DNA of 32,000 nt from Parasynechococcus marenigrum WH 8102 (GTDB taxonomy: Bacteria; Cyanobacteriota; Cyanobacteriia; PCC-6307; Cyanobiaceae), in assembly GCF_000195975.1 (NCBI RefSeq), contig NC_005070.1, positions 1,080,001 to 1,112,000 on the forward strand. Reading direction: 5' to 3'. Made by a program: the position numbers and the translations under genes. The notes beneath the pieces are model-generated. The model ran no database searches. It worked only from the letters and a program-made list of their open reading frames with translations, and was not told the DNA's origin. This document shows, piece by piece, positions 8,812-23,657 of this stretch. Position 1 is the stretch's first letter, and the number at the start of each line of letters is the position of its first letter.

Positions 8812-11345
8812 CCATTCCTGAGCTGCTATCCCCAGCCGGTGACTGGGACTGCCTCAAGGCCGCCGTCGCCAACGGTGCCGATGCTGTTTATTTCGGTGTT
8901 GATGCCTTCAATGCCCGCCAGCGGGCTGAGAACTTCCGCATCGAAGAACTGGGGGAGGTGATGACCTGGCTGCATGAGCGCCAGGTACGGGGGTTCCTCA
9001 CCTTCAACGTGCTCGTGTTCAGCGATGAGCTGGAACGTGCTGCTGCGTTGCTGCTTGCGGCGCAGGCCGCCGGGGTGGATGCGCTGATCGTTCAGGACGT
9101 GGGTCTTTGTTGTCTGGCTCGAACCCTGGTGCCGGATCTTGCGCTGCATGGCTCCACGCAGATGTCGATCACCAGTGCCGCTGGTGTGGCGCAGGCGGCC
9201 GCATTGGGCTGTGAACGGGTCGTTTTGGCCCGGGAGCTTGCGCTGACGGATCTTGAGCGCTTGCAGGGGCAGTTGCAGGCCAGGCATCTGGCCATGCCCC
9301 TTGAAGTCTTCATTCACGGTGCTTTGTGTGTGGCTTATTCCGGTCAGTGCCTGACCAGTGAGTCCCTGGGGCAGCGCAGTGCCAACCGCGGTGAATGTGC
9401 TCAGGCCTGCCGGCTCCCCTATGAATTGATCGTCGATGGCGTTCCACGACCCCTGGGTGATCAGCGCTACCTGCTGTCGCCTCAGGATCTTTCGGCCTGG
9501 CCTGTGCTGCCCGAGCTGCAGCGGATCGGCATCGCCAGCCTCAAGATCGAAGGGCGGCTGAAGGACCCGAGCTACGTGGCGGCCGTCACGGATGCCTACC
9601 GCCGTGGTCTCGATCGGGGCCTCAACCCCGCGGAACAGGACGACCCCCAGCGCCAGTTGGAGCTTGCTTTTTCACGGGGGTTATCCACCGGATGGTTGCA
9701 AGGGATGAACCACCGCTGCCTGGTCCACGGCCGTTGGAGCAAGAAGCGCGGTCCATTGGTGGGGCAGCTCTTGCAGGTGGATCGCAGTGGCTGGCTGCAG
9801 ATCCGCAGCCGGGAGTCCTTGCGACCTGGCCAGGGCTTGGTGTTGGAACGACGGTCCACATCGCCTCTTCAGCCTCCGGAGGAGGTTGGGGGACGCGTGA
9901 TGGTGGTGGAACGGCTCGGCCGCGAGCGCCTGCGCCTGAAACTTGGCCCGGGTCGTCTCAACCTCCGCGATCTCACGGCCGGTGCGTCGGTCTGGCTCAC
10001 CAGTGATCCCTCCTGGGACAGCCACTGGCAGCGGGCTGCCCAGCGTCCGACTGCCAGCCAATCCATCGGGCTGCAGCTTCGGGTGCGGGGCCGTCTGGAG
10101 CAGCCACTGGTGCTGGAAACAATTGAGGGAGGAACGCGAATCTCCAGCCGCATGCCCTTGCAGGCGGCCCAGCAACGCGCTCTCGATCGCCATCGTCTGG
10201 AGGAGCAGCTGGGACGGCTCGGGGGCAGCGGCTGCTTTCTAGAACGGCTGGAACTGGACCTGGAAGGGGATCTGTTTCTGCCAGTGGCCGAGCTGAATCG
10301 GATGCGCCGGGAGCTCCTGGAGCAGCTACAGCAGCCACCAGCCCTCGCGTCATCCCAAGGGCCCCTGCAGAGCTCCGCGGTGGATGTGCCGTCCGTTTTG
10401 AGGCAGCTGTTGCCAGAGACCTCGCCCCAGTCCTCAACGGATCAGACCGGACTCGTCGTGCTGGTGCGGAGCCTGGCGCAGCTGGAGGCCCTGATTCCAC
10501 TCACCAACCTGCCGATTGCGTCCGTGGTGGCCGATCTGGAGCAGCCCCGTGATCTGAGGGAAGCGGTGGCCATCGGTCGTGGTCATTGGCCCGATGGGAT
10601 CTGGCTGGCGGGAGCCCGTATCACCCGGCCCAATGAGTCCTGGAGCCTGGAACCGTTGATCCGAGCCCGTCCGGACGGCTATGTGGTGCGCAATGCCGAT
10701 CAATTGGAACGCCTCACCCCCTTGGCTCCCTGCGTCGGTGACTTTTCTCTAAATACGGCCAACCCCCTCAGCGTCCGCTGGTATCTGGAGCACTGGGGGT
10801 TGGAGCGGGTGACGGCCAGCTACGACCTCAACCTGCAGCAGCTACTGGATCTGGCCGCTGGCGTAGACCCCTCACGCATCGAGGTGACCCTCCATCAACA
10901 CATGCCCCTGTTTCACATGGACCACTGCGTGTTCTGCGCCTTTCTCTCGGATGGTCATGACCACACCGATTGCGGTCGCCCTTGTGAACAACACACCGTC
11001 ACGCTCAGGGATCGCAGCGGCGTTGAGCATCCATTGCGGGCCGATCTCGGCTGTCGCAACACCCTGTTCAACGGCACGGCACAAACCGGTGTGGAGGGTC
11101 TGCCGGCACTGCTCGAGATCGGCATCCGTCAGGTCCGCCTCGAGCTGTTGGATGAGGATGCTGCGTCGACGCAGCGTCGGGTCAGGCTTTACGCCGATGC
11201 GCTTCTGGGCCGTCGTGCATCACGGGACGTGTGGAGTCAGGAACAGATCCATCACCAACTCGGCGTGACCCGCGGGAGCCTGAAAGTAACAACTGGGCGT
11301 AATGAGCCGAGCACCGTAGGGCGCAAGGGCAAACGCCAGTCGTAG
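8808..11345 (+). CDS. Peptidase U32 family protein (long, collagenase-like form)
   Basis: The N-terminus PELLSPAGDWDCLKAAVANGADAVYFGV and the blocks IHGALCVAYSGQC and ECAQACR are U32 hallmarks. The TTG start overlaps the upstream stop. Confidence 0.85.
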   Translation: MTIPELLSPAGDWDCLKAAVANGADAVYFGVDAFNARQRAENFRIEELGEVMTWLHERQVRGFLTFNVLVFSDELERAAALLLAAQAAGVDALIVQDVGLCCLARTLVPDLALHGSTQMSITSAAGVAQAAALGCERVVLARELALTDLERLQGQLQARHLAMPLEVFIHGALCVAYSGQCLTSESLGQRSANRGECAQACRLPYELIVDGVPRPLGDQRYLLSPQDLSAWPVLPELQRIGIASLKIEGRLKDPSYVAAVTDAYRRGLDRGLNPAEQDDPQRQLELAFSRGLSTGWLQGMNHRCLVHGRWSKKRGPLVGQLLQVDRSGWLQIRSRESLRPGQGLVLERRSTSPLQPPEEVGGRVMVVERLGRERLRLKLGPGRLNLRDLTAGASVWLTSDPSWDSHWQRAAQRPTASQSIGLQLRVRGRLEQPLVLETIEGGTRISSRMPLQAAQQRALDRHRLEEQLGRLGGSGCFLERLELDLEGDLFLPVAELNRMRRELLEQLQQPPALASSQGPLQSSAVDVPSVLRQLLPETSPQSSTDQTGLVVLVRSLAQLEALIPLTNLPIASVVADLEQPRDLREAVAIGRGHWPDGIWLAGARITRPNESWSLEPLIRARPDGYVVRNADQLERLTPLAPCVGDFSLNTANPLSVRWYLEHWGLERVTASYDLNLQQLLDLAAGVDPSRIEVTLHQHMPLFHMDHCVFCAFLSDGHDHTDCGRPCEQHTVTLRDRSGVEHPLRADLGCRNTLFNGTAQTGVEGLPALLEIGIRQVRLELLDEDAASTQRRVRLYADALLGRRASRDVWSQEQIHHQLGVTRGSLKVTTGRNEPSTVGRKGKRQS

Positions 11346-11351
11346 ACATGA

Positions 11352-11363
11352 GTCTCAAGGGTC
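11352..11363. repeat. Candidate left junction repeat GTCTCAAGGGTC
   Basis: It shares TCAAGGGTC (9/9; 11/12 with flanks) with 21756-21767 at the other end of the island. Confidence 0.3.
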
Positions 11364-11375
11364 GGCACGCTCCGT

Positions 11376-11591
11376 ATGTCCGACGGACTTCAGCTCATGG
11401 AACTTCAACTGGAACAACCACTGACATCGGTTCTCAGCGTCAAAGTCGCTTCTGACGTGGAGCCACGCCTTGATCACCACTGTGCCCGGCTTCAACCCAG
11501 CGGCACCCTGCCCCGCGCTGCCCTGGTGCGTGCCCTGCTTCGCAAGGGACTGGCCGAGCTGGACGAGCTGGAGGCGAGCGATGAGCGCTGA
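11376..11591 (+). CDS. Ribbon-helix-helix (CopG/Arc-like) DNA-binding protein
   Basis: It shows a beta-strand/helix/helix pattern (SVLSVKVASDVEPRLDHHCARL...LPRAALVRALLRKGLAEL) of the type seen in RHH repressors and antitoxins. Its stop overlaps the next ORF's start (ATGAGCGCTGA). Confidence 0.5.
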   Translation: MSDGLQLMELQLEQPLTSVLSVKVASDVEPRLDHHCARLQPSGTLPRAALVRALLRKGLAELDELEASDER

Positions 11592-11799
11592 TCTCTACAC
11601 CCGCCCGCTAAGAGCTTCTGTTCGTGAGCTTCTGCAGGAAGACAACATTGACATCGCGGAAGCGCTTTATTCCGACTGCGATTACCCGACAGCACTCAGC
11701 AATCTTGCTGAAGTTCGTGTTGCAGCGCAGAAGGTGGTATTTGAAGCTGATGCACTCATGTGCGCAGTGCTTGTTAAGGCGATAAGGGAAGACGATTGA
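11581..11799 (+). CDS. Hypothetical acidic 72-aa protein, translationally coupled to the upstream RHH gene
   Basis: An internal ATG of track ORF 11470..11799 overlaps the RHH stop by 11 nt. I recognise no motif. Confidence 0.4.
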   Translation: MSADLYTRPLRASVRELLQEDNIDIAEALYSDCDYPTALSNLAEVRVAAQKVVFEADALMCAVLVKAIREDD

Positions 11800-11832
11800 A
11801 TCATCATACAGGCGGGTAATTCTCGCCCATTG

Positions 11833-11860
11833 TTGACACTTTTAATTCGTCTCTCAAAAT
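11833..11860 (+). promoter_or_regulatory. Possible sigma70-type promoter ahead of the second RHH gene
   Basis: TTGACA (11833-11838), a 16-nt spacer and CAAAAT (11855-11860) lie in an AT-rich 89-nt gap. Confidence 0.25.
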
Positions 11861-11888
11861 GGACTTATAAGACAAAATTTTGGATCTT

Positions 11889-12059
11889 ATGAAATTCAAG
11901 CCGCGTTGCAAGTATCCGCACATTACGGCGACATATTTGTCTGACGCCCTACTTGCTGAAGTCAACAAATTCTGCGTTGACCACAACTGCAGCAAGTCAG
12001 AAGCGATTCGCCTCCTGATGCAGAACGGCCTCGCCGCAATGCTTCTTGATGACGGCTGA
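11889..12059 (+). CDS. Ribbon-helix-helix protein, 56 aa, below the ORF-track cutoff
   Basis: My translation is MKFKPRCKYPHITATYLSDALLAEVNKFCVDHNCSKSEAIRLLMQNGLAAMLLDDG. It has the same beta-strand/helix/helix layout as 11376..11591 (SKSEAIRLLMQNGL versus RAALVRALLRKGL). It displaces the implausible antisense ORF 11804..12166. Confidence 0.5.
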   Translation: MKFKPRCKYPHITATYLSDALLAEVNKFCVDHNCSKSEAIRLLMQNGLAAMLLDDG

Positions 12060-12122
12060 GAAAAATGAAGGGCCGCCCTGACAAGCCAACCCTTCACCAA
12101 TCCGACCAATGGAATTTTACCC

Positions 12123-12275
12123 ATGAGACGCTCTGATGCTGGATTTTCCGTCCTAATTGCTTCCATTTACAGCGAGATCGAGGACTGGATTGACAAGCAC
12201 CCTGATTGCTCACCGCACGCCTCTCTTGCGGTTGATCGGCTGTTGCTGCTTCTAACGACAATGGGACAGATGTGA
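12123..12275 (+). CDS. Hypothetical 50-aa protein coupled to the replicase gene
   Basis: My translation is MRRSDAGFSVLIASIYSEIEDWIDKHPDCSPHASLAVDRLLLLLTTMGQM. Its TGA (12273-12275) overlaps the replicase ATG (12275-12277) as TGATG. Confidence 0.4.
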   Translation: MRRSDAGFSVLIASIYSEIEDWIDKHPDCSPHASLAVDRLLLLLTTMGQM

Positions 12276-14341
12276 TGTCGTGGCGAGAGAAACTTCCTGA
12301 GCTTCAAGGCTTCGCTTTGTTGCCGTGTGGTGCAGGCGAAAAAGGCAAAGCACCGATTGATCAGGTAACTGGGAAGCACTTAAACAATTGGCCAGACGCC
12401 TCCTTCACACCGGACGACATCCTGGCGATGAACGGGAAGGTGAAATGCGTTGGAGTCAGGCCAGGACCTGATAGTGACAATCTGCTTTTCATTGACATCG
12501 ACGGAGCATCAGCGCTCACGTTCTGCCAGGAACACCGGTGTGATCTGAAAGATGCTGGCTGGATCATCCGGCGCACTACAGCAGACGATCGCCTGAAGGT
12601 CGCGTTTCAGATCAATGATCAGGAGCTGGAAGAAGAACTCTCCGACATAGGTAAGACAGTTCACAGCACAGGTGCAGGCGAGCAGCTTGAGCTGTTTTGG
12701 TCCACTGGTCAGTGCGTCGTTCTTGGTGATCACAAAACGTCGGGTGGGCAGTACGTCTGGGAAGGCAGCCCGGCCGAGATTGATTCACCGACAGAGCCCT
12801 GGCGTGAGCTGATCAAGCTGCTGATCCAGATCACTAGGCAGAGACAGAGCAGTAGTGGGCAGTCAGATAAAGGCGACTGGCGCGATTGCATTCCCTGCCC
12901 GATCTGCGAAAGAACTGAACCTGACTGCCGCATCAATGCCAATGGCGACATGGTGCTCTGCCATCACGGGACCCGCTGGTCACCACCCGAAATCAGTAAG
13001 GGCGAGACGGTGGAACGTGATGGCGTCACCTGGGCGATGGTCGGGGATGGCGTCAATGCGATCGGACCTTTCAGCACCTTCAAGATCCATGCACCGATCA
13101 CCCGCTCCATCCCAGCGCCTACCCAAGGAGTCCTGTCTGAACTGATCAGTGAGATCACGGATGGCTGGACAGAGAAGGGCCGACTCACACCCGCTAACGC
13201 CGGGATGTTGGAACAGCTCCTCAGCGACATTCCTGGGGACCGGATCCGCTTCAACCTCCTCACCATGGAGATTGAGATTGATGGCCAACGGCTCAGCAGC
13301 ACAGAAGCCGAGAACGCCTACATCCGTTTTCAGCAAAGGGGATACAACTGCAGCAAGCAATCAGCGCGGGATGCACTGCGCACATCAGCCGAACGTTTCA
13401 GCTTTCACCCAGTCCGCGACTACTTGAACGGCCTTGAAGCCGTCGTGCCACAAGACATCACAAGGTTGGCCTCCACGTTTCTGCGTCCTGCTGACAGCAG
13501 CGATGCGCCGACCATTTACGACCGCATGGTGTTCATCACCTTGATCGGTGCAGTGGCCAGAGTCATGGAGCCCGGCTGCAAGTTCGACACCTGCACCGTG
13601 CTGCAAGGGAAGCAAGGCATTCGGAAGACCAGCTTCTGGCAGGCGTTGTTCGGGGAATACTTCACGACCTTCCGGGGACGGCTGGATGACAAGGACGGCC
13701 TCCTGGTCGTTCACCAGAGCTGGGGACTGGAGCTGGGCGAACTGGACAACATCACCGGTAGTTACAGGGCCGGGCAGATCAAGAACTTCGTCACGACGCA
13801 GTGCGATCACTTCCGCGCTCCTTATGCCGCCAAGTCCGAATCAGCACCAAGGCCCAGCGTGTTTGTCGGCACCTGTAACCGGAATGACTTCTTGCACGAC
13901 GACACCGGGGAACGACGCTGGCTGATCATCCCCGTTGAGCTGGAAAGGCAGCAGAAAATCAGCACCCATCAGCTCAGCCAGATCAGAGATGGAATCTGGA
14001 AGGCCGCGCTGGACGCTTACAGGCAGGGTGCGCTGACGTATTTGAATGATGAAGATGAGCAGCTCATTGAAGAGCTGAACCGAGACTTCACCGCCGACAC
14101 CCTGACCGAAGGTGCTGTTCAGCAGTTCCTGGCTGAAAACTCAGGTCGCGATTACTACGACCCGCAACAGGTCTATCTGTACGTGTCCGACAAGCTGAAC
14201 GTGCCTCTGACCGACCGCCTGAAGAAGGACATCAAAGTGGACATGGCGCGGACAGGGTTGGACATGAAGCGTGGACCCGCGGACAAGTTTGGACAGAAAC
14301 GGCCTCGGAAGTTCTTCCGCACTGACCTGTCCAACCCATGA
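12275..14341 (+). CDS. Bifunctional replicase: N-terminal archaeo-eukaryotic PrimPol domain, Cys/His zinc motif, C-terminal VirE-family P-loop domain
   Basis: PrimPol-like blocks are LLPCGAGEKGKAPI, LLFIDIDG (metal-binding DxD) and LGDHKTSG. The zinc motif is CPICERTEPDCRINANGDMVLCHHG. The VirE-like region runs VLQGKQGIRKTSFWQALFG...LELGELD...IKNFVTTQCDHFRAPY...PRPSVFVGTCNRNDFLHDDTGERRW. Confidence 0.85.
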   Translation: MSWREKLPELQGFALLPCGAGEKGKAPIDQVTGKHLNNWPDASFTPDDILAMNGKVKCVGVRPGPDSDNLLFIDIDGASALTFCQEHRCDLKDAGWIIRRTTADDRLKVAFQINDQELEEELSDIGKTVHSTGAGEQLELFWSTGQCVVLGDHKTSGGQYVWEGSPAEIDSPTEPWRELIKLLIQITRQRQSSSGQSDKGDWRDCIPCPICERTEPDCRINANGDMVLCHHGTRWSPPEISKGETVERDGVTWAMVGDGVNAIGPFSTFKIHAPITRSIPAPTQGVLSELISEITDGWTEKGRLTPANAGMLEQLLSDIPGDRIRFNLLTMEIEIDGQRLSSTEAENAYIRFQQRGYNCSKQSARDALRTSAERFSFHPVRDYLNGLEAVVPQDITRLASTFLRPADSSDAPTIYDRMVFITLIGAVARVMEPGCKFDTCTVLQGKQGIRKTSFWQALFGEYFTTFRGRLDDKDGLLVVHQSWGLELGELDNITGSYRAGQIKNFVTTQCDHFRAPYAAKSESAPRPSVFVGTCNRNDFLHDDTGERRWLIIPVELERQQKISTHQLSQIRDGIWKAALDAYRQGALTYLNDEDEQLIEELNRDFTADTLTEGAVQQFLAENSGRDYYDPQQVYLYVSDKLNVPLTDRLKKDIKVDMARTGLDMKRGPADKFGQKRPRKFFRTDLSNP

Positions 14342-14508
14342 CCATGGACACGTCCAACGTTGTGGCCAAGGCAAACCCACTACTACGACTAGCTGTCCAA
14401 GCTGTCCATACCTATCTCTGAAGACTCGTAGGAGAAGAAAAAAAGGCGTAGAAACGCACTATTGGGAAGTCTTGGGAAAAAGGGTTGGACAGTATGGACA
14501 GGTGGACA
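14239..14508. repeat. Iteron array (GGACA / TGGACAG) flanking an A-rich tract; putative replication origin
   Basis: GGACA occurs at 14239, 14250, 14260, 14281, 14291, 14346, 14487, 14496 and 14504, with GGACC at 14273. The inverted form TGTCC occurs at 14328, 14394 and 14403, with GTCCA at 14352. An A7 run lies at 14438-14444. Confidence 0.6.
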
Positions 14509-14770
14509 GGGCTCACCTTTCAGCCGCCGAGCCTCCTCCTCCACGTGGAGGCAAGATTCACCAGGACGTGCTCCTTCGGGATGCGCTTCAGCCCACCGGC
14601 AACGTATGCCTCCCCGCAATCGCCTACGTCGCCGACGATCAGGATTGGGATGACTTTTCCTTTGTGTTGAACGGACATGGTGGCCGGTTTTTACTCCATT
14701 CAGACTTTGAACAAGAGCTACAGATACTGACCATTTGTCCTAGACCAAGGTCATATATAAGGAGGAACAG

Positions 14771-14872
14771 ATGTTCCACGAAGTTTTTCTCACCACCACC
14801 CTGTGCGTGGCCATCGTTGGCGCTATGGCTCTCTTCTATGGAGAGCTTCTGCTGCTGAAACACGCCCGTTAG
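14771..14872 (+). CDS. 33-aa hydrophobic peptide with a canonical Shine-Dalgarno site
   Basis: AAGGAGG (14759-14765) lies 5 nt before the ATG. My translation is MFHEVFLTTTLCVAIVGAMALFYGELLLLKHAR, a single TM helix with a basic tail. Confidence 0.35.
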   Translation: MFHEVFLTTTLCVAIVGAMALFYGELLLLKHAR

Positions 14873-15032
14873 TTAGTCAGCTCCTGATCTTTCACAGCAG
14901 CCCTGTACCAGTGAAGGCTTCAATAACTTCTGCCGCACAAAGTTGTTTGTTGTTCGGTTGAGGTTCGGTTTTCTCACTCACGCTGTACTTCCAAACCTGG
15001 CGATCGTTAGTGAGTCATTTCAATCAACCTAA

Positions 15033-15203
15033 ATGTCTACCGAAGTTCGCAACTGGGATCTCGTCGCGAAAGCGATGGAAGCAGCTGGTGCCACATCAAG
15101 CCAGATGTATTTCCGTGCCAAAGCATTGGCACAGGGCAAGCTCGATCCAATGCCCACAAGCTTCCCTGAAGCTCCTTACAGCATTTCCGCTGTAGCTGGC
15201 TAA
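15033..15203 (+). CDS. Hypothetical 56-aa protein, below the ORF-track cutoff
   Basis: My translation is MSTEVRNWDLVAKAMEAAGATSSQMYFRAKALAQGKLDPMPTSFPEAPYSISAVAG. Its composition is more protein-like than the overlapping track ORF 15010..15195. Confidence 0.35.
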   Translation: MSTEVRNWDLVAKAMEAAGATSSQMYFRAKALAQGKLDPMPTSFPEAPYSISAVAG

Positions 15204-15285
15204 TTTGGTTTTTTGGATCAGCTTATTGAAATTCAAACAGCTCTTGGTCTGACTAATCATCAGGCCTTTACCTACCATCTTTCTC

Positions 15286-15498
15286 ATGACAAACTACCAT
15301 CTTTCTGTAGAGCAGAGATTTCATCTCGAAGCTGCATTTCGCGAGATTGATGCCTGCGAAGATATAGAAAAGCTTCGCGCACTAACTAGACAAATAATAA
15401 CTGCACAGCAGAATGAGAAAGCCTTTGCTCGCGAGGCGATGTTGCAGCTCCGGAAAGAAATGGAGTTTGTTGCCTCAAAAAAATTCGGTTTTAACTGA
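15286..15498 (+). CDS. NblA-like (phycobilisome degradation adaptor-like) small helical protein, tentative
   Basis: It is 70 aa. LSVEQRFHLEAAFREID...IEKLRALTRQIITAQQNEKAFAREAM matches the NblA signature as I remember it: LSxEQxF, an amphipathic helix, a short turn, then a second helix. Confidence 0.45.
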   Translation: MTNYHLSVEQRFHLEAAFREIDACEDIEKLRALTRQIITAQQNEKAFAREAMLQLRKEMEFVASKKFGFN

Positions 15499-15879
15499 GG
15501 TTAAAGCTGAACTCTTCGTAGATTGGCTGGATCGCATAAGCCTTGAAAGAGGTCTTCAATGGTGGACTCTTTAATGGGTCCTTTCTGTGAAGTGCGTACG
15601 GGTAATTTCGGGCCGCCTTCATTATTTAGCGTCAGATAAGTTGGGCCTAAATTGGCTAGCACTATATATTAGCCAAGCTAATCAAATTAGTGGTCAACAG
15701 CAGACGATATCACGGTGGAATGGTCTGCGCATTGTTTCTCTCGTACGGCCTGCCAGTACCGCTTCGCCTGCGCACTACTCAGGGCATCGTCAGCAGGGTT
15801 AGGCCGCATTGGAAGTCATCATCAGGCTGATGAGAGGCGAATTGCTGAGGCATCAGTAGACAAAACTCATGCCCTTAAT

Positions 15880-16080
15880 TTATCGCTGTGTGTATAGCAG
15901 CAATGCTATTTCACAAGCGGGCAAGTTAAAGCGCAGATGCCCGCGAGACGTTGCACCAGAACGGTAGTAGTGCACTCCACCCTTGAAATAGCCTTCCTTC
16001 ATCAGCCGCCATTGCGTCGTTCGGCCTAACCGCAGTTGCCGTCGCATTTCTGACGCTTTCACCCAATCTGATTGGAACAC
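15880..16080 (-). CDS. AlpA/excisionase-family helix-turn-helix protein (candidate directionality factor or regulator)
   Basis: It is 66 aa. WVKASEMRRQLRLGRTTQWRLMKEGYFKGGVHYYRSG...HLRFNL fits the winged-HTH pattern of AlpA/Xis (HTH_17-like) proteins. It is transcribed divergently from the capsid gene. Confidence 0.65.
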   Translation of the reverse strand: MFQSDWVKASEMRRQLRLGRTTQWRLMKEGYFKGGVHYYRSGATSRGHLRFNLPACEIALLLYTQR

Positions 16081-16143
16081 CTTGGAACAAGTTAGTTGAT
16101 TTCATTCTATCGGCCGTGATGATATAAACACGCGAGGCAATCA

Positions 16144-17154
16144 ATGAACCACACCATCACCAAGAAGCGGCCATATAGCTTCAACGCACTGCTCAGCTCA
16201 CTCAGCTCACAAGTCCCAGACGAACAGGCCACTTGGGAGCAAAACTTGTCACTGCAGGCTGAGAAGTTCTACGGCCAGCACAGCATCCAGAAGAAGCAGG
16301 AGAACGCGGCATTCATCCCAACCCAAAGGATGCTGCGCGATCTGATCACAGGCACTGCCAGCAGCGGTGGTGACTTGGTTGCCACGTCGGTGCAGAAAGT
16401 CGCAGACAGCGTCCGGCCTGTGACCGTCTTGGAGCGTGCCGGTGTTGAGCGGATTGAAACCGGCGGAGAGAACCTGACCATCCCGCGCTTTGCCAAGGCC
16501 GATGCCGGATGGATTGCAGAAGGTGCTGACTACACCGCACTCACCACCACAAGCACCAGCGTGGATGCCAGCCCGAAGCTCGCCAGTGCCCGCCTGTCTT
16601 TCAGCCGCCGCCTGAAGGTGCTCGTCCCTGACGTTGAAGGGTCAGTTCTGCAGGAAGTCGGCCGTGCTGTTGCCGGACTGATCGAGAAGGGAGCGATTCA
16701 AGGCACTGGCAGCAACTCTCAACCGCTTGGCCTGCTCAACCTGCCTGATGCGCTCAGCCAGACCTTTGCCTCTGCAACTCCCACCAGCGATGAACTGGCA
16801 TCAATGCTGGAGAAGCTCGGTGATGCCGATGTGGACCTGAGCAAGGTGGTGTTCCTGATGCACCCGAGCACTGCCGCTGATCTGATGAAGACCCGCGTGG
16901 ATGCCAGCAGTGGCGCGTTGGTGCTGAGTGACCTGAAGATTCACGGCCTGCCGGTATTCATCACAAGCAATGTCACCGAGGACAAGGTGATCGCACTGGA
17001 TCCGAGTTACAGCCGTCTCGTCTACTTCGGCAGTGCGCAAGTCGTCGTGGATCCCTTCCGAGGAGCCGTCAGTGGTGTCACGCACACACAAATCCTGAAC
17101 GCAGCGGACTTCGTTTGCTCGCATCAAAGCTCCGTTGTGGTGGGTTCTGCTTAA
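16144..17154 (+). CDS. HK97-fold phage major capsid protein
   Basis: It is 336 aa. GAIQGTGSNSQPLGLLN and VVFLMHPSTAADLMK resemble the conserved G-x-G...P-x-G-hydrophobic and v-hydrophobic-x-P...L blocks of Phage_capsid family proteins. The C-terminus is glycine/valine-rich, and there is no long N-terminal delta/scaffold domain. Confidence 0.7.
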   Translation: MNHTITKKRPYSFNALLSSLSSQVPDEQATWEQNLSLQAEKFYGQHSIQKKQENAAFIPTQRMLRDLITGTASSGGDLVATSVQKVADSVRPVTVLERAGVERIETGGENLTIPRFAKADAGWIAEGADYTALTTTSTSVDASPKLASARLSFSRRLKVLVPDVEGSVLQEVGRAVAGLIEKGAIQGTGSNSQPLGLLNLPDALSQTFASATPTSDELASMLEKLGDADVDLSKVVFLMHPSTAADLMKTRVDASSGALVLSDLKIHGLPVFITSNVTEDKVIALDPSYSRLVYFGSAQVVVDPFRGAVSGVTHTQILNAADFVCSHQSSVVVGSA

Positions 17155-17258
17155 CGGCAGGGTCGAAGGCCCATCACAGGGAGCGTCTGGAGTTTGCGCT
17201 TCCAACAGGGGCCGGTTGTTGAGGAGCCGGTCCCGCCCTAATCACACACAGGCAACAG

Positions 17259-17465
17259 ATGAACCGCGACTACATCGACTGGCTTACGTCACTGCCGAAT
17301 AACCGAGGCGTCAGGAATCGGCAGGTCAACGTCTGGATGTCGGGCTATGCGCCGCTACCCGATGAGATTGACTTACAGCACTGCGAGGAGATGCAGCAGC
17401 GGTGGGTGGTGCGGGACTGCCCTGACGGCGTGCTGGGGAGGCTTTGGTTGTGGGTTAGTCGTTAG
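17259..17465 (+). CDS. Hypothetical 68-aa protein; its 3' end is duplicated at 19178-19225
   Basis: The ORF has an ATG start. Its C-terminal CPDGVLGRLWLWVSR is repeated, with synonymous changes, as an orphan fragment 1.7 kb downstream. Confidence 0.4.
   Translation: MNRDYIDWLTSLPNNRGVRNRQVNVWMSGYAPLPDEIDLQHCEEMQQRWVVRDCPDGVLGRLWLWVSR
17418..17465 (+). repeat. Direct repeat copy A (3' end of ORF 17259..17465)
   Basis: TGCCCTGACGGCGTGCTGGGGAGGCTTTGGTTGTGG... matches 19178 onward at 30 of the first 36 positions by my hand alignment. Confidence 0.5.
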
Positions 17466-17702
17466 GTCTGCAGCGGGGAACACTTCAGGCAATCACGACT
17501 GACCAACGCCTCAAGACACCCGCATCGACCCGTTCCTTGCAGCCCTGCGAGCCAACGACCCTGACACCTTCAAACGGTGGCTATATGGCAGAGTTCATTC
17601 GCTTTGGAAACTTTGCCATCCGCAATACATCTTCAAAACTCTTCTATCAATTTTCTGGATACACGAGGCGTAAATCTGGCAGATACAGCATAAGCTTTTT
17701 GT

Positions 17703-18260
17703 ATGAAGTCAACTATTTTAGAGTACGATTCAACCCGCTACAACTTCAGGAAGTGGGCTTGCGAGTTGCTGGGAGTCAATGACCTGGAGGCAATTCATTC
17801 TTTGAATAAAGTCAAGACTTGCAATATCAGCCCAACCGCCAATCAGCTGGCGAAGTCATTCTCGTCCATTCAGGAAATCTATAAGTCGTTTGTACTGGAT
17901 GTAATAGACAATGAAATTGGTGGTATTACTAATTACCAGAGCCCGCCTTCGTTTCGCTTTTATTACAGCGGACTAGGAAGCACCGTTTTTCATCGAGATC
18001 GGGATTTTGGGGTTGAACAGGGCAGGATTAATGTATGGGTACCATTGACTAATGTGTGGGGAAATAATTCTCTTTGGATTGAAGGAAAAGAAGGTGCAGA
18101 AGATCACCAGCCCATAACGATGCAGTTTGGCCAGATACTTCTTTTTGACGGGGTAAATATCAGCCATGGATCAAAAATCAATACGACATCATCAACTCGT
18201 GTTAGTTTTGACTTCCGCTTTCTTCCTGGCGGAGGTCCTGCTTTCCCAGTATCATACTGA
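17703..18260 (+). CDS. 2-oxoglutarate/Fe(II)-dependent oxygenase superfamily protein
   Basis: It has the HxD...H...RxS facial triad and 2OG-binding arrangement: VFHRDRD, NISHGS, TRVSFDFR. The gene is very AT-rich, as cyanophage and island cargo often is. Confidence 0.6.
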   Translation: MKSTILEYDSTRYNFRKWACELLGVNDLEAIHSLNKVKTCNISPTANQLAKSFSSIQEIYKSFVLDVIDNEIGGITNYQSPPSFRFYYSGLGSTVFHRDRDFGVEQGRINVWVPLTNVWGNNSLWIEGKEGAEDHQPITMQFGQILLFDGVNISHGSKINTTSSTRVSFDFRFLPGGGPAFPVSY

Positions 18261-18469
18261 GACAATTAACGAATCAGATATTCACTATAAAATAATTTTA
18301 GCCAGAAAAGCGCGCTGTTCATCTGCTATAGATAAAAATCATTCAGATGAATTGATCACATTTTGCTGACAATTTGGCTGGTCTTTGATGGCCTGATTGA
18401 TTGCCTCCCCGCATTTTTAAGCTAAGTCCTCACACAATTTACTCTGTCATTGATTTCAGCGATTTCGCT

Positions 18470-18748
18470 TCACCCGAGGCCGTAAGCCTTTGCGACTAGG
18501 GGACCTGCTTGCTCATCAGTCAGTACAGGTGTCACTTCCCAATCCATGATCTCCGCCCACTCTGCAGCATGTTCATAACAAGCATCCGCGTTATCAGCCT
18601 CAACAAGAATCCATCCTTCAAGTGAACCAGGTCCGTGGAAACGCTTCCAAGACTTGCACTCTGGGAAAGGCGCACCAGTCGAAATAAACTTTTTAGCTGC
18701 GGTTTCGTGATAGCCGGTCTTGAAAGACCAGTGCATTAGAAACATCAT
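18470..18748 (-). CDS. DUF3303-family protein
   Basis: MMFLMHWSF...FISTGAPFPE...WKRFHGPGS.EGWILVEADNADA..EHAAEWAEIMDWEVTPVLTDEQAG follows the DUF3303 pattern as I remember it. The ATG at 18748 is preferred over the TTG at 18763. Confidence 0.55.
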   Translation of the reverse strand: MMFLMHWSFKTGYHETAAKKFISTGAPFPECKSWKRFHGPGSLEGWILVEADNADACYEHAAEWAEIMDWEVTPVLTDEQAGPLVAKAYGLG

Positions 18749-18963
18749 TTTGATTTCTAACAATTAATAATTAAACTAGCGCAGTCTAGTACATGCTTGT
18801 GTATTAACTAACACACGTTCCCGGTCCATCTTCTGTTGTCAGATGGGTGCTCAGAGTTTGTGCCGACCTTTTTGGAATGCTGAAGCTTCCCGATGGTTTG
18901 TTCTAATACAGCTCTCAACCCTGAAGACGCATTACAACGGAATCAGAAAAGAAGGTGGGTGCC

Positions 18964-19152
18964 ATGAGCCGATCAAGGTCGTTCAACCGCTTTCATCGTT
19001 ATTTGGCTCGGCAGAAACGCCGTGGACTACGCTCCGTCCTGCCGCAGTTCCAGATGGACTTCCAGTACTACGGATCTCCCATCGATCACAGTCGCGACAT
19101 GCTCAACCGGCTCAAAGGACGCGAAGTGGAGCTAGAGCTTCTGGACGCCTAG
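18964..19152 (+). CDS. Hypothetical small basic protein (62 aa)
   Basis: It reads MSRSRSFNRFHRYLARQKRRGLRS...LKGREVELELLDA. An ATG lies inside track ORF 18955..19152, preceded by GGTGG. It competes with the overlapping and less protein-like ORF 18843..19253. Confidence 0.35.
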   Translation: MSRSRSFNRFHRYLARQKRRGLRSVLPQFQMDFQYYGSPIDHSRDMLNRLKGREVELELLDA

Positions 19153-19177
19153 GCTCTAGCCCATTTCGTTCTACTTA

Positions 19178-19225
19178 TGCCCTGATGGTGTGCTGGGAAC
19201 GCTTTGGCGGTGGTTGCGTGACTGA
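19178..19225 (+). pseudogene. Direct repeat copy B: orphan 3' gene fragment homologous to the end of ORF 17259..17465
   Basis: It encodes CPDGVLGTLWRWLRD-stop. The frame opens only after a TAG at 19157-19159 and has no start codon. Confidence 0.45.
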
Positions 19226-19249
19226 AATGGAGCATTCTCGCGTAGACAT

Positions 19250-19756
19250 CTAACGCAAGTTTTTCCCTGTCTTGCAATCCATCACGTTGCGAATACGACC
19301 ACCAAAGGAGTTTGTGGCGGAGTACTCGATCTGGAGGCTTGCAAAGTCACGGTTGTGAACCTGGAAGCTGTCCGGGTCCTTCATGGCTGCCTTGAGTGAT
19401 CCCTCACATTGAGTCATGGCTTTCACTACGAGATCAGCCAATTCGTTCTGGGCTCTTCTGGCTTCGGCCGCTTTTTTGTTGGCCTCAGCTGTATCTGCTG
19501 CAGCTTTCTTGGCGGCTTCGACCTGCTGAACGAACTTGGGCTTGAACTCCTCGTTCGTGATTTGGCCGAGATCAAAGTCCTCGTTAACGATGTAGTCACT
19601 TGAGAGCAATGACTCGCAGTCATCGGACTTGCCGTTGTTGCAACCACTCTTCAGACCCTGCTCCCAGAGCGTTGCGCCTATGAGAAGGGCAACGAAGAGT
19701 CCCACTAAACCGCCGCCAGCCCATAAACAAATCTTTAAGCAACCACCCTTCATCAT
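19250..19756 (-). CDS. Membrane-anchored/exported protein with a Lys/Ala-rich linker and a Cys-containing C-terminal domain
   Basis: An N-terminal hydrophobic segment (GGGLVGLFVALLIGATLW) is followed by LKSGC (lipobox-like but imperfect), a KKAAADTAEANKKAAEARRAQ linker and KDPDSFQVHNRDF...YSATNSFGGRIRNVMDC. It lies 33 nt downstream of the recombinase gene on the same strand. Confidence 0.55.
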   Translation of the reverse strand: MMKGGCLKICLWAGGGLVGLFVALLIGATLWEQGLKSGCNNGKSDDCESLLSSDYIVNEDFDLGQITNEEFKPKFVQQVEAAKKAAADTAEANKKAAEARRAQNELADLVVKAMTQCEGSLKAAMKDPDSFQVHNRDFASLQIEYSATNSFGGRIRNVMDCKTGKNLR

Positions 19757-19789
19757 GAAGCTGACAATGCTGCAGCAATGATGGCATCG

Positions 19790-21688
19790 TTATGCCGTTT
19801 TGGCCCAGTCCACTGCATCAGCTCTTGCTCCTGCGCTTAGCCGGCCTGCCTCCTCTGCTGTGAATGTTGGAGATTTGATTCGTTTAGGAACGGGGATGCT
19901 TGATTCAAGTTTTTCTCGCTGCTCTGTTATCTGTTGTGGTGTGGCTCTTAGTTCCGCTAAGTCCTGAATAGTTTGGTCAATCACACAATCGTCTCCTCTG
20001 CGATAAAGGTAAACATCATCAATGGAGTTCAAAAGCTGCTTGTCAGTTACATCCGGTCGAATCTCACGCCACCAGTGATCGATTGGCAGATCTTTTAGTG
20101 TAATGCGGACACGAACCGGATTCGTGTTCATGAAAATAATCCGTGCTCCAAGTGTTTGCACCCACTGGTTGAACTTATTTCTTACTTCTGGGTCGGCACG
20201 ATTGGGCAATGACAAAAATTCTTCTAACTTGATCCGAATTTGTTCCTTCATGTCCGCGCCGTCAGGTAATGCTTGAAAAGCTTCAAGTTCAGCTCTTGTT
20301 TGTTTTGTTTTATCCTCGGCCGCGTTGGCTTGTTTCTTAGCCTTGATAGCCAGTTCTCCATAGAACACCAGAAGGTCCTTATCTGCATTCGTTTGAGTAA
20401 AGGCTTTGCTGGCATTGTCCTCAGCGGCTTTTGCTTGTGTCCTCAGCTCACCCGCAAGTCGCTCTTGCTCTAAGAGCCGATCCTGAAGATCTCGGATACG
20501 AGGCCCGGTGCCTGGGTTTTTAAAAAACCGCTCCCATCGCCTGTCCATGAAGGCCCTGAGCAAGAGCTCTTCGTCTACCTTCCATCGTTGTTTGCTTTTG
20601 ACAATGCAATCGCGGCCATCGTTCTGTGCGCTGCAGACAAGGTCTAAATACTTTCCGCTATGGCTGCTGGTATCCACCATCGGTGCACCGCAGCAACAGT
20701 AAGTCAGCCCTTTAAAGATATTGCGGCATGGCCCTAGTTCTCCGTTCTTTCTCGTTGTCCGACCTCTAGCTGGAGCCGAGTAACGACGCTTGACGTTCTC
20801 TCTTGCCAGTTCAACCGTTTTAGCGTCAACAATTACCGGGTAATAGCCCTGGCTGATTATCCCGTCTCCCCAGCACTTATGTCCCATCACTTGGTCGTTT
20901 CTCAGGACCTTGCAGACGTTTGCATTTCCCCAGGTACCACCAGTGGCAGTAGATAGTCCACGACGGTTTAGTTCTTCTGCGATCTGAACGCTGGACAGTC
21001 CCTGTTTGGCTGCCAACTCAAAGATCAACTGGATTGTTTCCGCTAGTGGAGCTGGGACAAAGTCGTTCTCACCTATTGCCAACCACTTTGGTGCATCTGA
21101 CAAGGACAGAAACTTTTTTCCAGAATTCAGATAAGAGTCACGTCGCTCTTGCCAAACGTTTTTGATTCTTCGGGATTTTTTGCTGCTCTCTGCGTTGGAC
21201 TCATTTTGAAGGACTTTCAGCATTACTGAGAGTCCTATATTTTCGTTGTAGAGCTCCTCTGTGACGATCGAGTCCTGGCTGACAATTCCAAGGGCAAGGT
21301 CCAGGTCCCAAAGCTCGTGGAGCATCCGCTCGCTAACGCTTGTGGTTCGCCTTGAGAAGCGGTCCCATTCCTCCACCACCAGCACCGAGCCTGCCGGGAT
21401 TAGGTCGTCGCGCCGAGCCTGGATGAACGCACCCAAGGCACCCTTGCTCTTGTGTGTGCCGTGAAAAGCCGAAAGCCCTTCATCTCGGATTGGATCGGCG
21501 TTGGGTATCAGGCCGTGGCGCTGGCAAAACGGCTCAAATGCGTCGTGCTGTCTTTTCAGTCCTACTCCATCCACTTGGGATTTCGTTGAAACCCGTTCGT
21601 AGCTGAACCCAATACGTGTCACTTCTTCAACCGACTTTTTAGTCCGGTCCTGTGCTGTCGATCCACTGTGCTGACTGGCGGCCGTCAT
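19790..21688 (-). CDS. Large serine recombinase (serine integrase)
   Basis: It is 632 aa. The resolvase catalytic motif is FSYERVSTKSQ with EEWDRFSR. The recombinase domain reads TWGNANVCKVLRNDQVMG, the zinc-ribbon cysteines CCCGAPM...LVCSAQNDGRDC, followed by a long coiled-coil-like region (LRTQAKAAEDNASKAF...AKKQANAAEDKTKQTRAELEAF). Confidence 0.9.
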   Translation of the reverse strand: MTAASQHSGSTAQDRTKKSVEEVTRIGFSYERVSTKSQVDGVGLKRQHDAFEPFCQRHGLIPNADPIRDEGLSAFHGTHKSKGALGAFIQARRDDLIPAGSVLVVEEWDRFSRRTTSVSERMLHELWDLDLALGIVSQDSIVTEELYNENIGLSVMLKVLQNESNAESSKKSRRIKNVWQERRDSYLNSGKKFLSLSDAPKWLAIGENDFVPAPLAETIQLIFELAAKQGLSSVQIAEELNRRGLSTATGGTWGNANVCKVLRNDQVMGHKCWGDGIISQGYYPVIVDAKTVELARENVKRRYSAPARGRTTRKNGELGPCRNIFKGLTYCCCGAPMVDTSSHSGKYLDLVCSAQNDGRDCIVKSKQRWKVDEELLLRAFMDRRWERFFKNPGTGPRIRDLQDRLLEQERLAGELRTQAKAAEDNASKAFTQTNADKDLLVFYGELAIKAKKQANAAEDKTKQTRAELEAFQALPDGADMKEQIRIKLEEFLSLPNRADPEVRNKFNQWVQTLGARIIFMNTNPVRVRITLKDLPIDHWWREIRPDVTDKQLLNSIDDVYLYRRGDDCVIDQTIQDLAELRATPQQITEQREKLESSIPVPKRIKSPTFTAEEAGRLSAGARADAVDWAKTA

Positions 21689-21755
21689 GGCTGAGAAGAC
21701 CAGTTACGGGCTGAAGTTACCTATTTACGCGCTGACGTGCCATGCAGGAGCCTGC

Positions 21756-21767
21756 GTGTCAAGGGTC
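21756..21767. repeat. Candidate right junction repeat GTGTCAAGGGTC
   Basis: It matches 11352-11363. It abuts an 18-nt near-palindrome, CATGCAGGAGCCTGCGTG, at 21741-21758. Confidence 0.3.
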
Positions 21768-21854
21768 CTGAACGCACCAGTCAAATCTCACGTTGAGATA
21801 ACCTTTCGCCCTGCGCCTTTGGGCGTTCTTCACAAATTCAAACGGTCAACCCGC

Positions 21855-23657
21855 ATGAGCGCCCAGCACAAGGCGATTCGCAACATCGCGATCATCGCTC
21901 ACGTTGACCATGGCAAAACGACCCTGGTTGATTCCCTGCTGGCGCAATCAGGCATCTTCCGCGACAACGAAGCGGTGCCCACCTGCGTCATGGACTCCAA
22001 CGATCTGGAGCGTGAGCGCGGCATCACCATTCTGTCGAAAAACACGGCTGTCGATTACAACGACACCCGCATCAACATTGTTGACACCCCTGGTCACGCC
22101 GATTTCGGCGGTGAAGTGGAGCGGGTGCTCGGAATGGTGGATGGCTGTCTGCTGATTGTCGACGCCAACGAGGGGCCGATGCCCCAGACTCGATTCGTGC
22201 TGAAGAAGGCATTGGAGCAGGGTCTGCGCCCGATCGTGTTCGTCAACAAAATCGACCGTGCCCGGGTGGATCCCGAGACGGCTGTGGACAAGGTGCTGGA
22301 TCTGTTCATCGAGCTCGGCGCCGATGACGATCAGTGCGATTTCCCTTACCTGTTCGGAAGCGGTCTCGGCGGATTCGCCAAGCCAGACATGAAGACGGAC
22401 AGCGACAACATGCAACCGCTGTTTGACGCAATCCTGCGTCACGTTCCGCCCCCGGTCGGTGATGTGGAGAAGCCGTTGCAGCTTCAGATCACCACCCTCG
22501 ATTACTCCGATTTCCTTGGACGCATCATCATCGGCCGTGTTCATAACGGTGTGATCAAGCAGGGCCAGAGCGCTTCGTTGATTAAGGACGACGGCAGCAT
22601 CAAGCGTGGCCGCATCAGCAAACTGCTGGGATTCCAAGGCCTGCAGCGGGTTGAGATCGATGAGGCCAGTGCCGGTGATCTGGTGGCCGTGGCTGGTTTT
22701 GACGACGTCAACATCGGTGAAACCATTGCCTGCCCGGATGAGCCCACCGCTCTGCCGCTGATCAAGGTGGATGAGCCCACCCTGCAGATGACTTTTGTGG
22801 TCAACGACTCCCCCTTCGCCGGTAAGGAGGGCAAGTTCGTGACCAGTCGCCAGGTGCGCGACCGTCTCCAACGGGAGCTGCTCACCAACGTGGCCCTGCG
22901 TGTCGAAGACACCGACTCACCAGATCGCTTTGCCGTCAGTGGCCGTGGCGAGCTGCACCTGGGCATCCTGATCGAGACCATGCGCCGCGAGGGCTACGAG
23001 TTCCAGGTGTCGCAGCCGCAAGTGATCTTTCGCACCATTGACGGCACTCCCTGCGAACCGGTGGAAACGCTGGTGATGGACGTGCCCGAGGAGGCCGTCG
23101 GTGGCTGCATCGAAAAACTGGGCACCCGCAAGGGCGAAATGCAGAACATGGAGACCGGCCAGGACGGCCGGACCCAGCTGGAATTCATCGTTCCGTCCCG
23201 TGGTCTGATCGGCTTCCGGGGTGAGTTCATTCGCACCACCCGCGGCGAAGGGATCATGAGCCATTCCTTCTTCGAATACCGCCCGATGCTGGGCGAGTTC
23301 GACACGCGTCGGAACGGGGTCCTGATTGCCTTCGAGGAAGGCACCGCCACCTTCTATGCCCTTAAGAACGCCGAGGACCGTGGTCAGTTCTTCATCTCGC
23401 CAGGCACCAAGGTGTACAAGGGCATGATCATCGGTGAGAACAACCGCCCACAGGACCTTGAGATCAACGTCTGCAAGGCCAAGCAGCTCACCAACATGCG
23501 TTCCGCCGGTGCAGAGGAACTCGACACCCTTCAGGCACCGGTGCAGATGACGCTTGAGCGGGCTCTCGAGTACATCGGTCCCGATGAGATGCTCGAGGTG
23601 ACACCTGAATCCATCCGACTGCGCAAGCTGCCGGCCAAGAAGATGGCCAAGCGCTGA
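21855..23657 (+). CDS. typA: Translational GTPase TypA/BipA
   Basis: [38 protein letters not shown] and NKIDR are GTPase motifs, with full-length EF-G-like domains. The track ORF start at 21687 is an upstream in-frame extension without homology. Confidence 0.93.

Follow-up and report, generated by a model that had tools for sequence, protein, structure and literature searches.

Here we describe a mobile element in the genome of the marine cyanobacterium Parasynechococcus marenigrum WH 8102 (marine Synechococcus WH 8102). The element is a unit of 10,472 bp at positions 11283-21754 of the window, that is, of the whole 32,000-nucleotide stretch of DNA that was analyzed (NCBI RefSeq assembly GCF_000195975.1, contig NC_005070.1, positions 1,080,001 to 1,112,000 of the forward strand), where it lies inside the 3′ end of a gene for a U32 peptidase. 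It encodes a large serine recombinase, a replicase accompanied by a putative origin and a single capsid protein. We consider the element likely to be intact and probably active, to integrate site-specifically and to replicate by itself, and to be of the phage-satellite type known from marine picocyanobacteria, comparable to the phage-inducible chromosomal islands (PICIs) or to the tycheposons. Our confidence is much higher for that part of the reading which describes an active-type, site-specific integrative replicon. Satellite status proper, meaning dependence on a helper and packaging into virions, is suggested by the gene content and by the precedent of PICIs, tycheposons and the PICI-like element (PLE) of Vibrio cholerae. 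A first-pass annotation of this DNA had proposed a phage-parasitic island with a serine integrase, a replicase and a capsid gene; the island is borne out below by an empty site, by an attP form of a sister element and by circular relatives, and its satellite nature is argued from gene content.

Both flanks of the island consist of housekeeping genes. The left neighbor is the U32 peptidase gene (PF01136, DUF3656), with its stop codon at 11345, and the right neighbor is typA/BipA, which starts at 21855. The insert has a GC content of 0.521 compared with 0.614 for the remainder of the window; locally, GC is 0.58-0.66 in the flanks and 0.42-0.59 from about 11500 to about 22000. The location between these two genes and the AT-richer composition are thus as first described. 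A scan with the U32 peptidase as query, covering one genome per species, identified the empty site that the first-pass annotation had suggested looking for in related Synechococcus. Two cyanobacterial relatives, the single-amplified genome Synechococcus sp. AG-670-A05 (L009) and the metagenome-assembled genome TMED177 (L001), encode typA proteins 97-98 % identical to that of the window, and in each of them only 58 bp separate the U32 stop codon from the typA start. Because of this spacing, the 10.4 kb found between the two genes in WH 8102 represents an insertion.

Alignment with the two uninterrupted genomes places the ends of this insertion precisely. Homology with the host sequence ends at the octamer GGAGCCTG at 11275-11282 and restarts just past a second copy of GGAGCCTG at 21747-21754, and this 8-bp core is the direct repeat that flanks the unit. 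The left attachment site, attL (11253..11307), accordingly consists of the host B arm, the core (with its central AG at 11277-11278) and the element P′ arm, which begins at 11283. The right site, attR (21722..21776), consists of the element P arm, the core (AG at 21749-21750) and the host B′ arm. The insertion point thus falls within the last codons of the U32 gene, 100 bp upstream of typA. Comparison of the translation with the empty sites shows that the element supplies a new peptidase C-terminus and stop codon (11283..11345, forward strand; KVTTGRNEPSTVGRKGKRQS followed by the stop) in place of the ancestral tail, which reads RVKGPERTSKISR and a stop codon in the empty-site sequences of both relatives. 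The displaced original 3′ end of the gene is found at the far side of the element (21755..21796, forward strand; RVKGPERTSQISR followed by a stop), where it matches the intact gene ends of these relatives.

The free form of the attachment site is seen in a relative. A Logan contig (L021) encoding an integrase 91 % identical to that of the window reads ...CATGCAGGAGCCTG followed immediately by AAAGTAACAACTGGGCGTAATGAGCC..., joining the right end of the element to its left end at 11283, and the sequence that encodes the new U32 C-terminus adjoins the junction there as well. By its sequence, this contig is the attP form of a sister element, with CATGCAGGAGCCTGAAAGTAACAAC as the attP junction. The reconstructed attP, TTTACGCGCTGACGTGCCATGCAGG-AG-CCTGAAAGTAACAACTGGGCGTAAT, is about 50 bp long and shows dyad symmetry around the core AG at 14 of 22 positions, which 16 of 2000 shuffles also attained; in attB, symmetry is best centered on the same AG, with 11 of 22 positions. 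Crossover takes place within GGAGCCTG, probably at the central AG. The short sites, the imperfect dyad and the lack of long direct repeats compose the attachment anatomy expected of large serine recombinases. On the evidence of the attP form and of the empty sites, the limits of 11364 and 21767 given by the first-pass annotation have to be replaced by 11283 and 21754, inside the U32 gene.

The earlier limits probably derive from another repeat, TCAAGGGTC, which occurs at 11354-11362 and at 21759-21767. We considered TCAAGGGTC as an alternative core, with some dyad symmetry by eye and with 11283-11352 as an older remnant, and rejected it: the sister element joins ...GGAGCCTG straight to AAAGTAAC..., and its own TCAAGGGTC copy is internal. 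Within the element, 11344..11370 (CATGAGTCTCAAGGGTCGGCACGC) is an att-like pseudo-copy of the host B′ arm and not a crossover site. It is identical to 21750-21766 at 14 of 17 positions, and the likeness runs on beyond this segment (compare 21750-21775). It sits about 60 bp inside the left end and is also found within the attP-form relative; it could be host DNA picked up through an imprecise excision long ago, or else a secondary binding site.

Integration swaps the final 13 codons of the U32 gene for 20 codons encoded by the element, and typA is now parted from any upstream signals that formerly lay within the U32 gene. The open reading frame (ORF) listed for typA begins farther upstream, with an ATG at 21687, so that it spans attR and overlaps the start of the integrase gene by 2 bp. 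We rejected 21687 as the typA start, since both empty-site genomes place the true start at 21855, and regard the extension as an artefact of the insertion. The U32 gene of AG-670-A05 (327-1306) aligns with the window protein over residues 1-74 and 589-827 only and changes frame; either an internal part of the gene has been deleted or the assembly is at fault. Scans of the window found no tRNA or tmRNA gene and no Rfam match, and promoter and terminator predictions did not rise above chance.

The enzyme expected to carry out the integration is a large serine recombinase of 632 amino acids, encoded on the reverse strand at 19790..21688. It matches the Resolvase (PF00239, 39.9 bits against a cut-off of 23.3) and Recombinase (PF07508, 48 bits, above cut-off) domains and the integrase family phrog_95 (E 7e-43). 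The zinc-ribbon domain Zn_ribbon_recom (PF13408) scores 20.4 bits, below its cut-off of 25.3, and is recorded for many homologs. The translation contains the catalytic motif Y30-E-R-V-S34-T-K-S-Q, so that the assignment as a serine integrase made by the first-pass annotation holds. As far as sequence can establish it, the element is integrated by a serine recombinase at a defined attB. The ratio of nonsynonymous to synonymous substitution rates (dN/dS) of the integrase gene relative to the sister element is 0.19, and that of the capsid gene relative to a 97 %-identical relative is 0.07; both genes are maintained by purifying selection.

The same site is used by other elements. In five loci (L022, an NCBI metagenome-assembled genome, and L023-L026), integrases 57-63 % identical to that of the window lie beside typA, inserted at the same GGAGCCTG core, and the P arm is conserved in all five. 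The genes that follow the integrase differ: in GCA_028405005.1 (L022, 10001-13891) they encode DUF4278, DUF3303 and glutathione S-transferase proteins, and in L023 a DUF411 protein. These five contigs end before any capsid gene could be seen. The junction of the U32 peptidase and typA genes serves as a landing pad for several types of element. The integrase clade at this junction is indexed mostly from marine and estuarine metagenome assemblies, in elements with differing cargo, and its choice of target is relevant to the origin of genomic islands away from tRNA genes. The integrase of the window is indexed as an identical protein in 41 collection blocks, and the 23 contigs examined fall into two gene contexts, both adjoining typA. 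The island therefore seems to be stably resident in a natural population, as judged from these contigs.

Related elements also occur in free or tandem forms. A 16.5-kb scaffold (L017) has a perfect period of 8450 bp and is a two-copy concatemer or a circle; a 10,053-bp contig (L019) has a terminal overlap of 127 bp and closes to a circle of 9926 bp; two further contigs of 8.7-9.9 kb (L018 and L031) are without host genes. Each of these four encodes a serine recombinase, one replicase, a capsid protein and small ORFs, and nothing else recognizable. Circles or concatemers that bear attP, are 8.5-10 kb long and carry this minimal set of genes exist among both close and distant relatives. The first-pass annotation had proposed a search for the unit as a circular or concatemeric molecule; L017 and L019 provide such molecules for relatives, and the element itself was not found in IMG/VR. 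The sole IMG/VR match to the capsid family (L020/L045; IMGVR_UViG_3300027977_002433 = Ga0247834_1003859) carries two divergent capsid copies about 8.4 kb apart, at 536-1549 and 8968-9987, which are 60 % and 40 % identical to the window protein, together with a 547-bp repeat at a spacing of 9155 bp. It may represent two family members in tandem or a chimeric assembly.

Across the family, the conserved core is formed by the integrase, a small helix-turn-helix (HTH) protein, the capsid protein and a 68-amino-acid protein, with interchangeable replicases. Nine of the longer related contigs encode a serine recombinase. The HTH protein of the window (66 amino acids, 15880..16080, reverse strand) is of the excisionase/AlpA type and is encoded divergently from the capsid gene; its gene is conserved beside the capsid gene, at the same position, in 26 related loci with 32-98 % identity. 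The window protein itself has no direct match in Pfam, and 8 of 14 family members match the excisionase-type HTH_17 (best E 2e-5), so that the original AlpA/Xis-type assignment stands by homology and not by a match of the protein itself. We regard it as a candidate activator or recombination directionality factor. The 68-amino-acid protein is encoded just downstream of the capsid gene (17259..17465, forward strand) and matches no family; proteins of 65-68 amino acids with 34-60 % identity occupy the same position in 14 related loci. A relationship with the 66-amino-acid gene that follows the capsid gene of the siphovirus S-LBS1 was considered and dropped, as the two share no similarity. Replicases of the family are of the PrimPol-VapE, DUF3854/D5_N and AAA_25 types or a protein of 1191 amino acids. 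The GC content of the family (47-63 %) and the presence of DUF1651 and Nif11 proteins in the cargo of relatives point to picocyanobacteria of the Synechococcus type as hosts.

The replicase of the window (12272..14341, forward strand) consists of an N-terminal PrimPol-like domain fused to a VapE/VirE-type helicase. The helicase part is recognized by PF05272 (VapE-like) with E 7e-60. The N-terminal Prim-Pol domain (PF09250) scores 20.2 bits, just below the cut-off of 22.8, and is carried by homologs at 53 % identity; the PrimPol/VirE fusion initially proposed is thus supported directly in its helicase half and through homologs in its primase half. The protein also matches PHROG helicase and primase families, and its best match in a phage is the primase/polymerase of S-LBS1, at 38 % identity. 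The PrimPol-like N-terminus (12272-12800) recurs at 40-54 % identity in metagenome proteins, fused there to AAA_25 or DUF3987. Its occurrence on unrelated helicases indicates domain shuffling among such replicases.

Two further contigs carry relatives of the replicase. In Synechococcus sp. AH-551-N17 (L080; JAOMGC010000004.1, 10001-20764) a PrimPol-VapE protein 35 % identical to the window replicase belongs to an island that also holds a tyrosine integrase, T5orf172 nucleases, a high-light-inducible-type protein and DUF1651. The same type of replicase is here combined with the other integrase class, reminiscent of the sharing of modules reported for tycheposons. A 27-kb contig (L081; ENA ERZ25068665 ctg132065), which repeats perfectly with a period of 17,832 bp, has a tape-measure gene, a faint tyrosine-integrase match and a gene for a VapE helicase that shares 52 % identity with the C-terminal half of the window replicase. 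It lacks a capsid gene like that of the window and may represent either a temperate siphovirus of very small size or a satellite of some other kind.

Directly behind the replicase, and overlapping the 3′ end of its gene, lies a putative replication origin (14238..14512) composed of iteron-like TGGACA(G) repeats. Seven of the 11 copies of TGGACAG in the window fall within the 220 bp from 14290 to 14509, where about 0.04 would be expected, and at least 11 TGGACA cores in both orientations are arranged around an A-rich spacer in 14238-14512. In relatives with a replicase of the VapE type, the 3′ end of this gene carries short repeats as well, differing from those of the window and distinctive of each relative, as would fit iterons matched to each initiator. 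The repeats agree with the iterons reported at first, and we infer that the cluster serves as the origin of replication.

The capsid gene (16144..17154, forward strand) encodes an HK97-fold major capsid protein of 336 amino acids without a protease domain. It matches Phage_capsid (PF05065) with 70.6 bits against a cut-off of 24.2 (E 2e-19), TIGR01554 with 63.1 bits against 27.5, and phrog_617 with E 1e-32. An AlphaFold model built with 16 sequences was unusable (pLDDT 49); the model used here was built with 74 homologs and reaches a pLDDT of 83.4 and a pTM of 0.81, with the N-terminal helical region present. Among solved structures, Foldseek matches this model with probability 1.0 to the capsids of the marine siphophage R4C (8gta), phiXacJX1 (9lbm), D3 and HK97, and it further matches models of viral capsids. 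The modeled structure thus confirms the HK97 fold. PHROG scans of 20 island ORFs found the capsid as the sole structural match and no portal, terminase, protease, tail or lysis gene, in keeping with the single virion gene recorded by the first-pass annotation.

Encapsulins, gene transfer agent (GTA) capsids and the capsid of the capsid-forming PICI (cf-PICI) EcCI2 (rank 26) appear among the lower-ranked structural matches. Together with the compact, self-contained nature of the family, the encapsulin and GTA matches could be taken to indicate an autonomous virus of very small size or an encapsulin-like compartment, with an HK97-fold protein that needs no helper. The best matches in both sequence and structure, however, are capsids of tailed phages, and among the genes of the element there is no portal or terminase and no obvious cargo protein bearing a targeting peptide. 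Nor is this the context of an encapsulin, since the gene is linked to those of an integrase and a replicase on a circle that can be excised. We consider this explanation very improbable.

In phage genomes, the best matches to the capsid protein are only 25-30 % identical and include the Synechococcus siphoviruses S-LBS1, S-CBS1 and S-CBS3. Over its whole length, the island protein corresponds to residues 298-628 of the 631-amino-acid capsid protein of S-LBS1, and phrog_617 and PHROG 10 align to it only over their C-terminal halves. Both observations indicate that the island encodes only the shell-forming part and no protease. Homologs of the island capsid number 99, with 36-97 % identity, and nearly all of the full-length ones are 328-364 amino acids long. 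A search of 1.84 billion cluster representatives returned 34 clusters at E <= 1e-30, mostly proteins of about 330-360 amino acids or shorter fragments; many of the more distant matches are proteins of 560-890 amino acids that align in their C-terminal part only.

Since the capsid and the replicase both find their best phage matches in S-LBS1, a siphovirus of the temperate type, and since the composition of the island is mosaic, the element could be the remnant of a decayed temperate cyanophage that has kept only its integrase, replicase and capsid genes. The evidence already contradicts this very improbable scenario. Intact attL and attR sites bound exactly 10.47 kb, a matching attP exists in a relative, and independent relatives are complete circles of 8.45-9.93 kb with the same minimal gene set. 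No pseudogenes were seen in the island, its dN/dS values lie at 0.07-0.19, and its flanks are housekeeping genes. A decaying prophage had been set aside at the outset, and these att sites, selection values and flanks uphold that judgment.

The integrase has joined the approximately 50-bp attP to attB in the last codons of the U32 gene, with the element supplying the new peptidase C-terminus. From there, the following life cycle can be proposed for a satellite. Small repressors encoded at the left end would hold the element silent. Infection by a helper cyanophage would lift this repression; a siphovirus of the S-LBS1, S-CBS1 or S-CBS3 type may be this helper, proposed here because the capsid and primase of these phages are the nearest phage relatives of the island proteins. 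The integrase would then excise a circle with the aid of a directionality factor, either the 66-amino-acid HTH protein or a protein of the helper, and the PrimPol-VapE replicase would fire at the TGGACA iteron cluster. The protease-less capsid protein would build, or co-assemble into, capsids sized for about 10 kb, with portal, protease, terminase and tail provided by the helper. The resulting particles would carry the element to new cells, where it would integrate at the same site.

Several points weigh against a satellite of this kind. Induction by a phage and packaging of the element are deduced from its gene content, and no terS gene and no cos or pac site was found in the element. The phage capsids, at 25-30 % identity, are too distant to argue for co-assembly. 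All 23 of the 23 contigs examined carry the exact integrase at the chromosomal typA site, and the element may be largely quiescent. Scans of IMG/VR returned neither the attP sequence nor the integrase, and the capsid family is found there once; the circular contigs may stem from either the cellular or the viral fraction of their samples. The island moreover carries cargo-like genes, which PICI-like tycheposons are said never to do (Hackl et al., bioRxiv 10.1101/2020.12.28.424599).

The main rival explanation is that of a plasmid-like integrative island spread by vesicles or other non-virion routes, in which the capsid protein would not be a vehicle for the element but an anti-phage weapon, a decoy that poisons the assembly of the helper capsid. 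An autonomous replicase and origin, relatives that occur as circles and the near absence of evidence from virion fractions all suit such an island, and the tycheposon preprint reports hallmark genes enriched in vesicles (Hackl et al.). The capsid protein, moreover, corresponds to only the C-terminal half of the fused S-LBS1-type capsid, a truncation that could be dominant-negative. Yet the full length of the capsid protein is kept throughout the family, with its N-terminal helical region and under strong purifying selection, which fits a working shell at least equally well, and PADLOC finds no known defense gene in the island. Interference and self-packaging are also not mutually exclusive in known satellites; the two can coexist in the Staphylococcus aureus pathogenicity islands (SaPIs), in P4 and in PLE. 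We judge spread without virions to be unlikely, and retain the phage satellite as the preferred reading.

The remaining genes of the island are mostly small. At the left end, ORFs of 71 amino acids (11376..11591) and 72 amino acids (11581..11799), both on the forward strand, are called as genes in the public record (L015). The first had been annotated as a ribbon-helix-helix (RHH) protein and has no match in Pfam, PHROG, NCBIfam or PDB; the second matches no family. A putative transcriptional repressor of 56 amino acids (11889..12059, forward strand, in the public record) matches phrog_4738, ‘transcriptional repressor’, with E 1e-4. The small RHH regulators described initially therefore find no support in profiles from these four collections, and this single ORF matches a repressor family. 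Just upstream of the replicase, an ORF of 50 amino acids (12123..12275, forward strand) is kept even where the type of replicase differs: tblastn finds it at 46-53 % identity just upstream of the replicase genes of L017 and L018. Downstream of the replicase, a 52-amino-acid ORF (14520..14678, reverse strand, called in the public record) is 49 % identical over 39 amino acids to a gene at the same position in L017. An ORF of 70 amino acids (15286..15498, forward strand) is called in the public record and matches no family.

Two cargo-like genes lie in the segment 17500-19250, which has the lowest GC content of the window (0.42-0.46). The first (17703..18260, forward strand) would encode a 2-oxoglutarate-Fe(II) oxygenase-like protein of 185 amino acids, with matches to TIGR04324 (E 4e-12, below cut-off) and PhyH (E 0.003); it has no phage homolog and is not called in the public record, so it is an uncertain gene. 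The second (18470..18763, reverse strand) encodes a DUF3303 protein (PF11746, E 3e-24), with which the copy in L022, another element integrated at this att site, shares 86 % identity. Downstream of the integrase gene, a 168-amino-acid protein with a predicted N-terminal membrane helix (19250..19756, reverse strand) is 39 % identical to the product of a gene in L018 and matches phrog_2320 weakly; it has no PADLOC match.

Marine Synechococcus are among the most abundant phototrophs, and to our knowledge few of their mobile elements and none of their phage satellites have been worked out experimentally. The locus described here offers a testable system, with exact attL, attR, attP and attB sites and a predicted AG crossover, a candidate origin, a candidate excision switch and a capsid whose phage relatives point to a helper lineage. 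The att pair could serve as an orthogonal integration tool in cyanobacterial genetics. A more far-reaching proposition, which we find doubtful, is that these elements are the first family of minimal capsid-forming satellites to be defined for Synechococcus. Its members, of 8.5-10.5 kb, would combine a large serine recombinase, an AlpA-like switch, interchangeable replicases and one capsid protein without a protease, descended from the C-terminal half of the fused capsid protein of cyanosiphoviruses like S-LBS1; this protein alone would redirect helper heads to small capsids, and the integrases would have evolved to target and rebuild the 3′ ends of conserved protein genes and not tRNA genes.

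Among known systems, the Synechococcus siphoviruses S-LBS1, S-CBS1 and S-CBS3 share the host genus and have the nearest phage capsids (26-28 % identity) and, in S-LBS1, a replicase at 38 % identity. Unlike the island, these are whole phages, whose genomes of 30-35 kb include terminase, portal and tail genes, and the S-LBS1 capsid, at 631 amino acids, is nearly twice as long. The PLE of V. cholerae is likewise a phage satellite with a large serine recombinase, but it lacks a capsid gene, has no sequence relationship to the island and depends on another host and helper. Its excision factor is supplied by the helper phage, which sets a precedent for a helper protein as the directionality factor here. 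The cf-PICIs of Proteobacteria and Firmicutes have in common with the island an HK97-fold capsid of their own, an integrase and an AlpA-type regulator. They carry a full head module of capsid, portal, protease, adaptors and small terminase, whereas only the capsid protein of this module was found among the 20 ORFs scanned in the island.

The VEIMEs (virion-encapsidated integrative mobile elements) are small integrative replicons of <5 to 16.8 kb with primase/helicase and AlpA-type genes and serine recombinases. They form concatemers, as does, if it is not a circle, the two-copy family member L017. They were obtained from purified virions as concatemers, and none has a major capsid gene; module 3 of the VEIMEs is 91 % serine recombinase, some of these enzymes being related to those of tycheposons, and PLEs were the only reference satellites with a large serine recombinase (Eppley et al. 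2022, PMC9618062). The island differs from them by its capsid gene and by being known from sequence alone, whereas the VEIMEs were recovered from virions.

The PICI-like tycheposons of Prochlorococcus correspond to the island in several respects. Both have a picocyanobacterial host, a size of about 10 kb, a site-specific integrase, an excisionase-type HTH protein, a primase/polymerase with a VirE-type helicase and a single packaging-related gene, which in the island encodes the major capsid protein (MCP). According to Hackl et al., the PICI-like type carries an MCP or terS gene, never cargo, and the primase/polymerase and VirE helicase are hallmark genes. The island, in contrast, uses a large serine recombinase instead of a tRNA-associated tyrosine recombinase, targets the 3′ end of a protein gene (not an absolute exclusion, given the minority elements among tycheposons), resides in Synechococcus with a family GC content unlike that of high-light Prochlorococcus, and contains cargo-like genes; this comparison with the elements of Hackl et al. 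is one of descriptions. The first-pass annotation had argued for a possibly undescribed lineage on the ground that known elements use tyrosine integrases at tRNA genes. This is only mostly true: 474 of 501 tycheposons have a tRNA-type tyrosine recombinase, at a tRNA or tmRNA gene, and 27 of 501 are not of the tRNA type (Hackl et al.). With a large serine recombinase in 27 of 937 elements of the same study, and with the serine enzymes of VEIME module 3, the argument was overstated. Tycheposon-like insertions have also been described in Synechococcus at tRNA-Phe.

In the searchable literature we found no description of a family with the HTH-capsid-68-amino-acid cassette, of its range in Synechococcus or of the U32 target, and this specific family and its 3′-end target may be undescribed. 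The conceptual advance is modest, since the element class and its serine recombinases have already been published, and the combination of features found in the island lies within the published design space. The element is most likely one of the satellite elements that have previously been described in oceanic picocyanobacteria.

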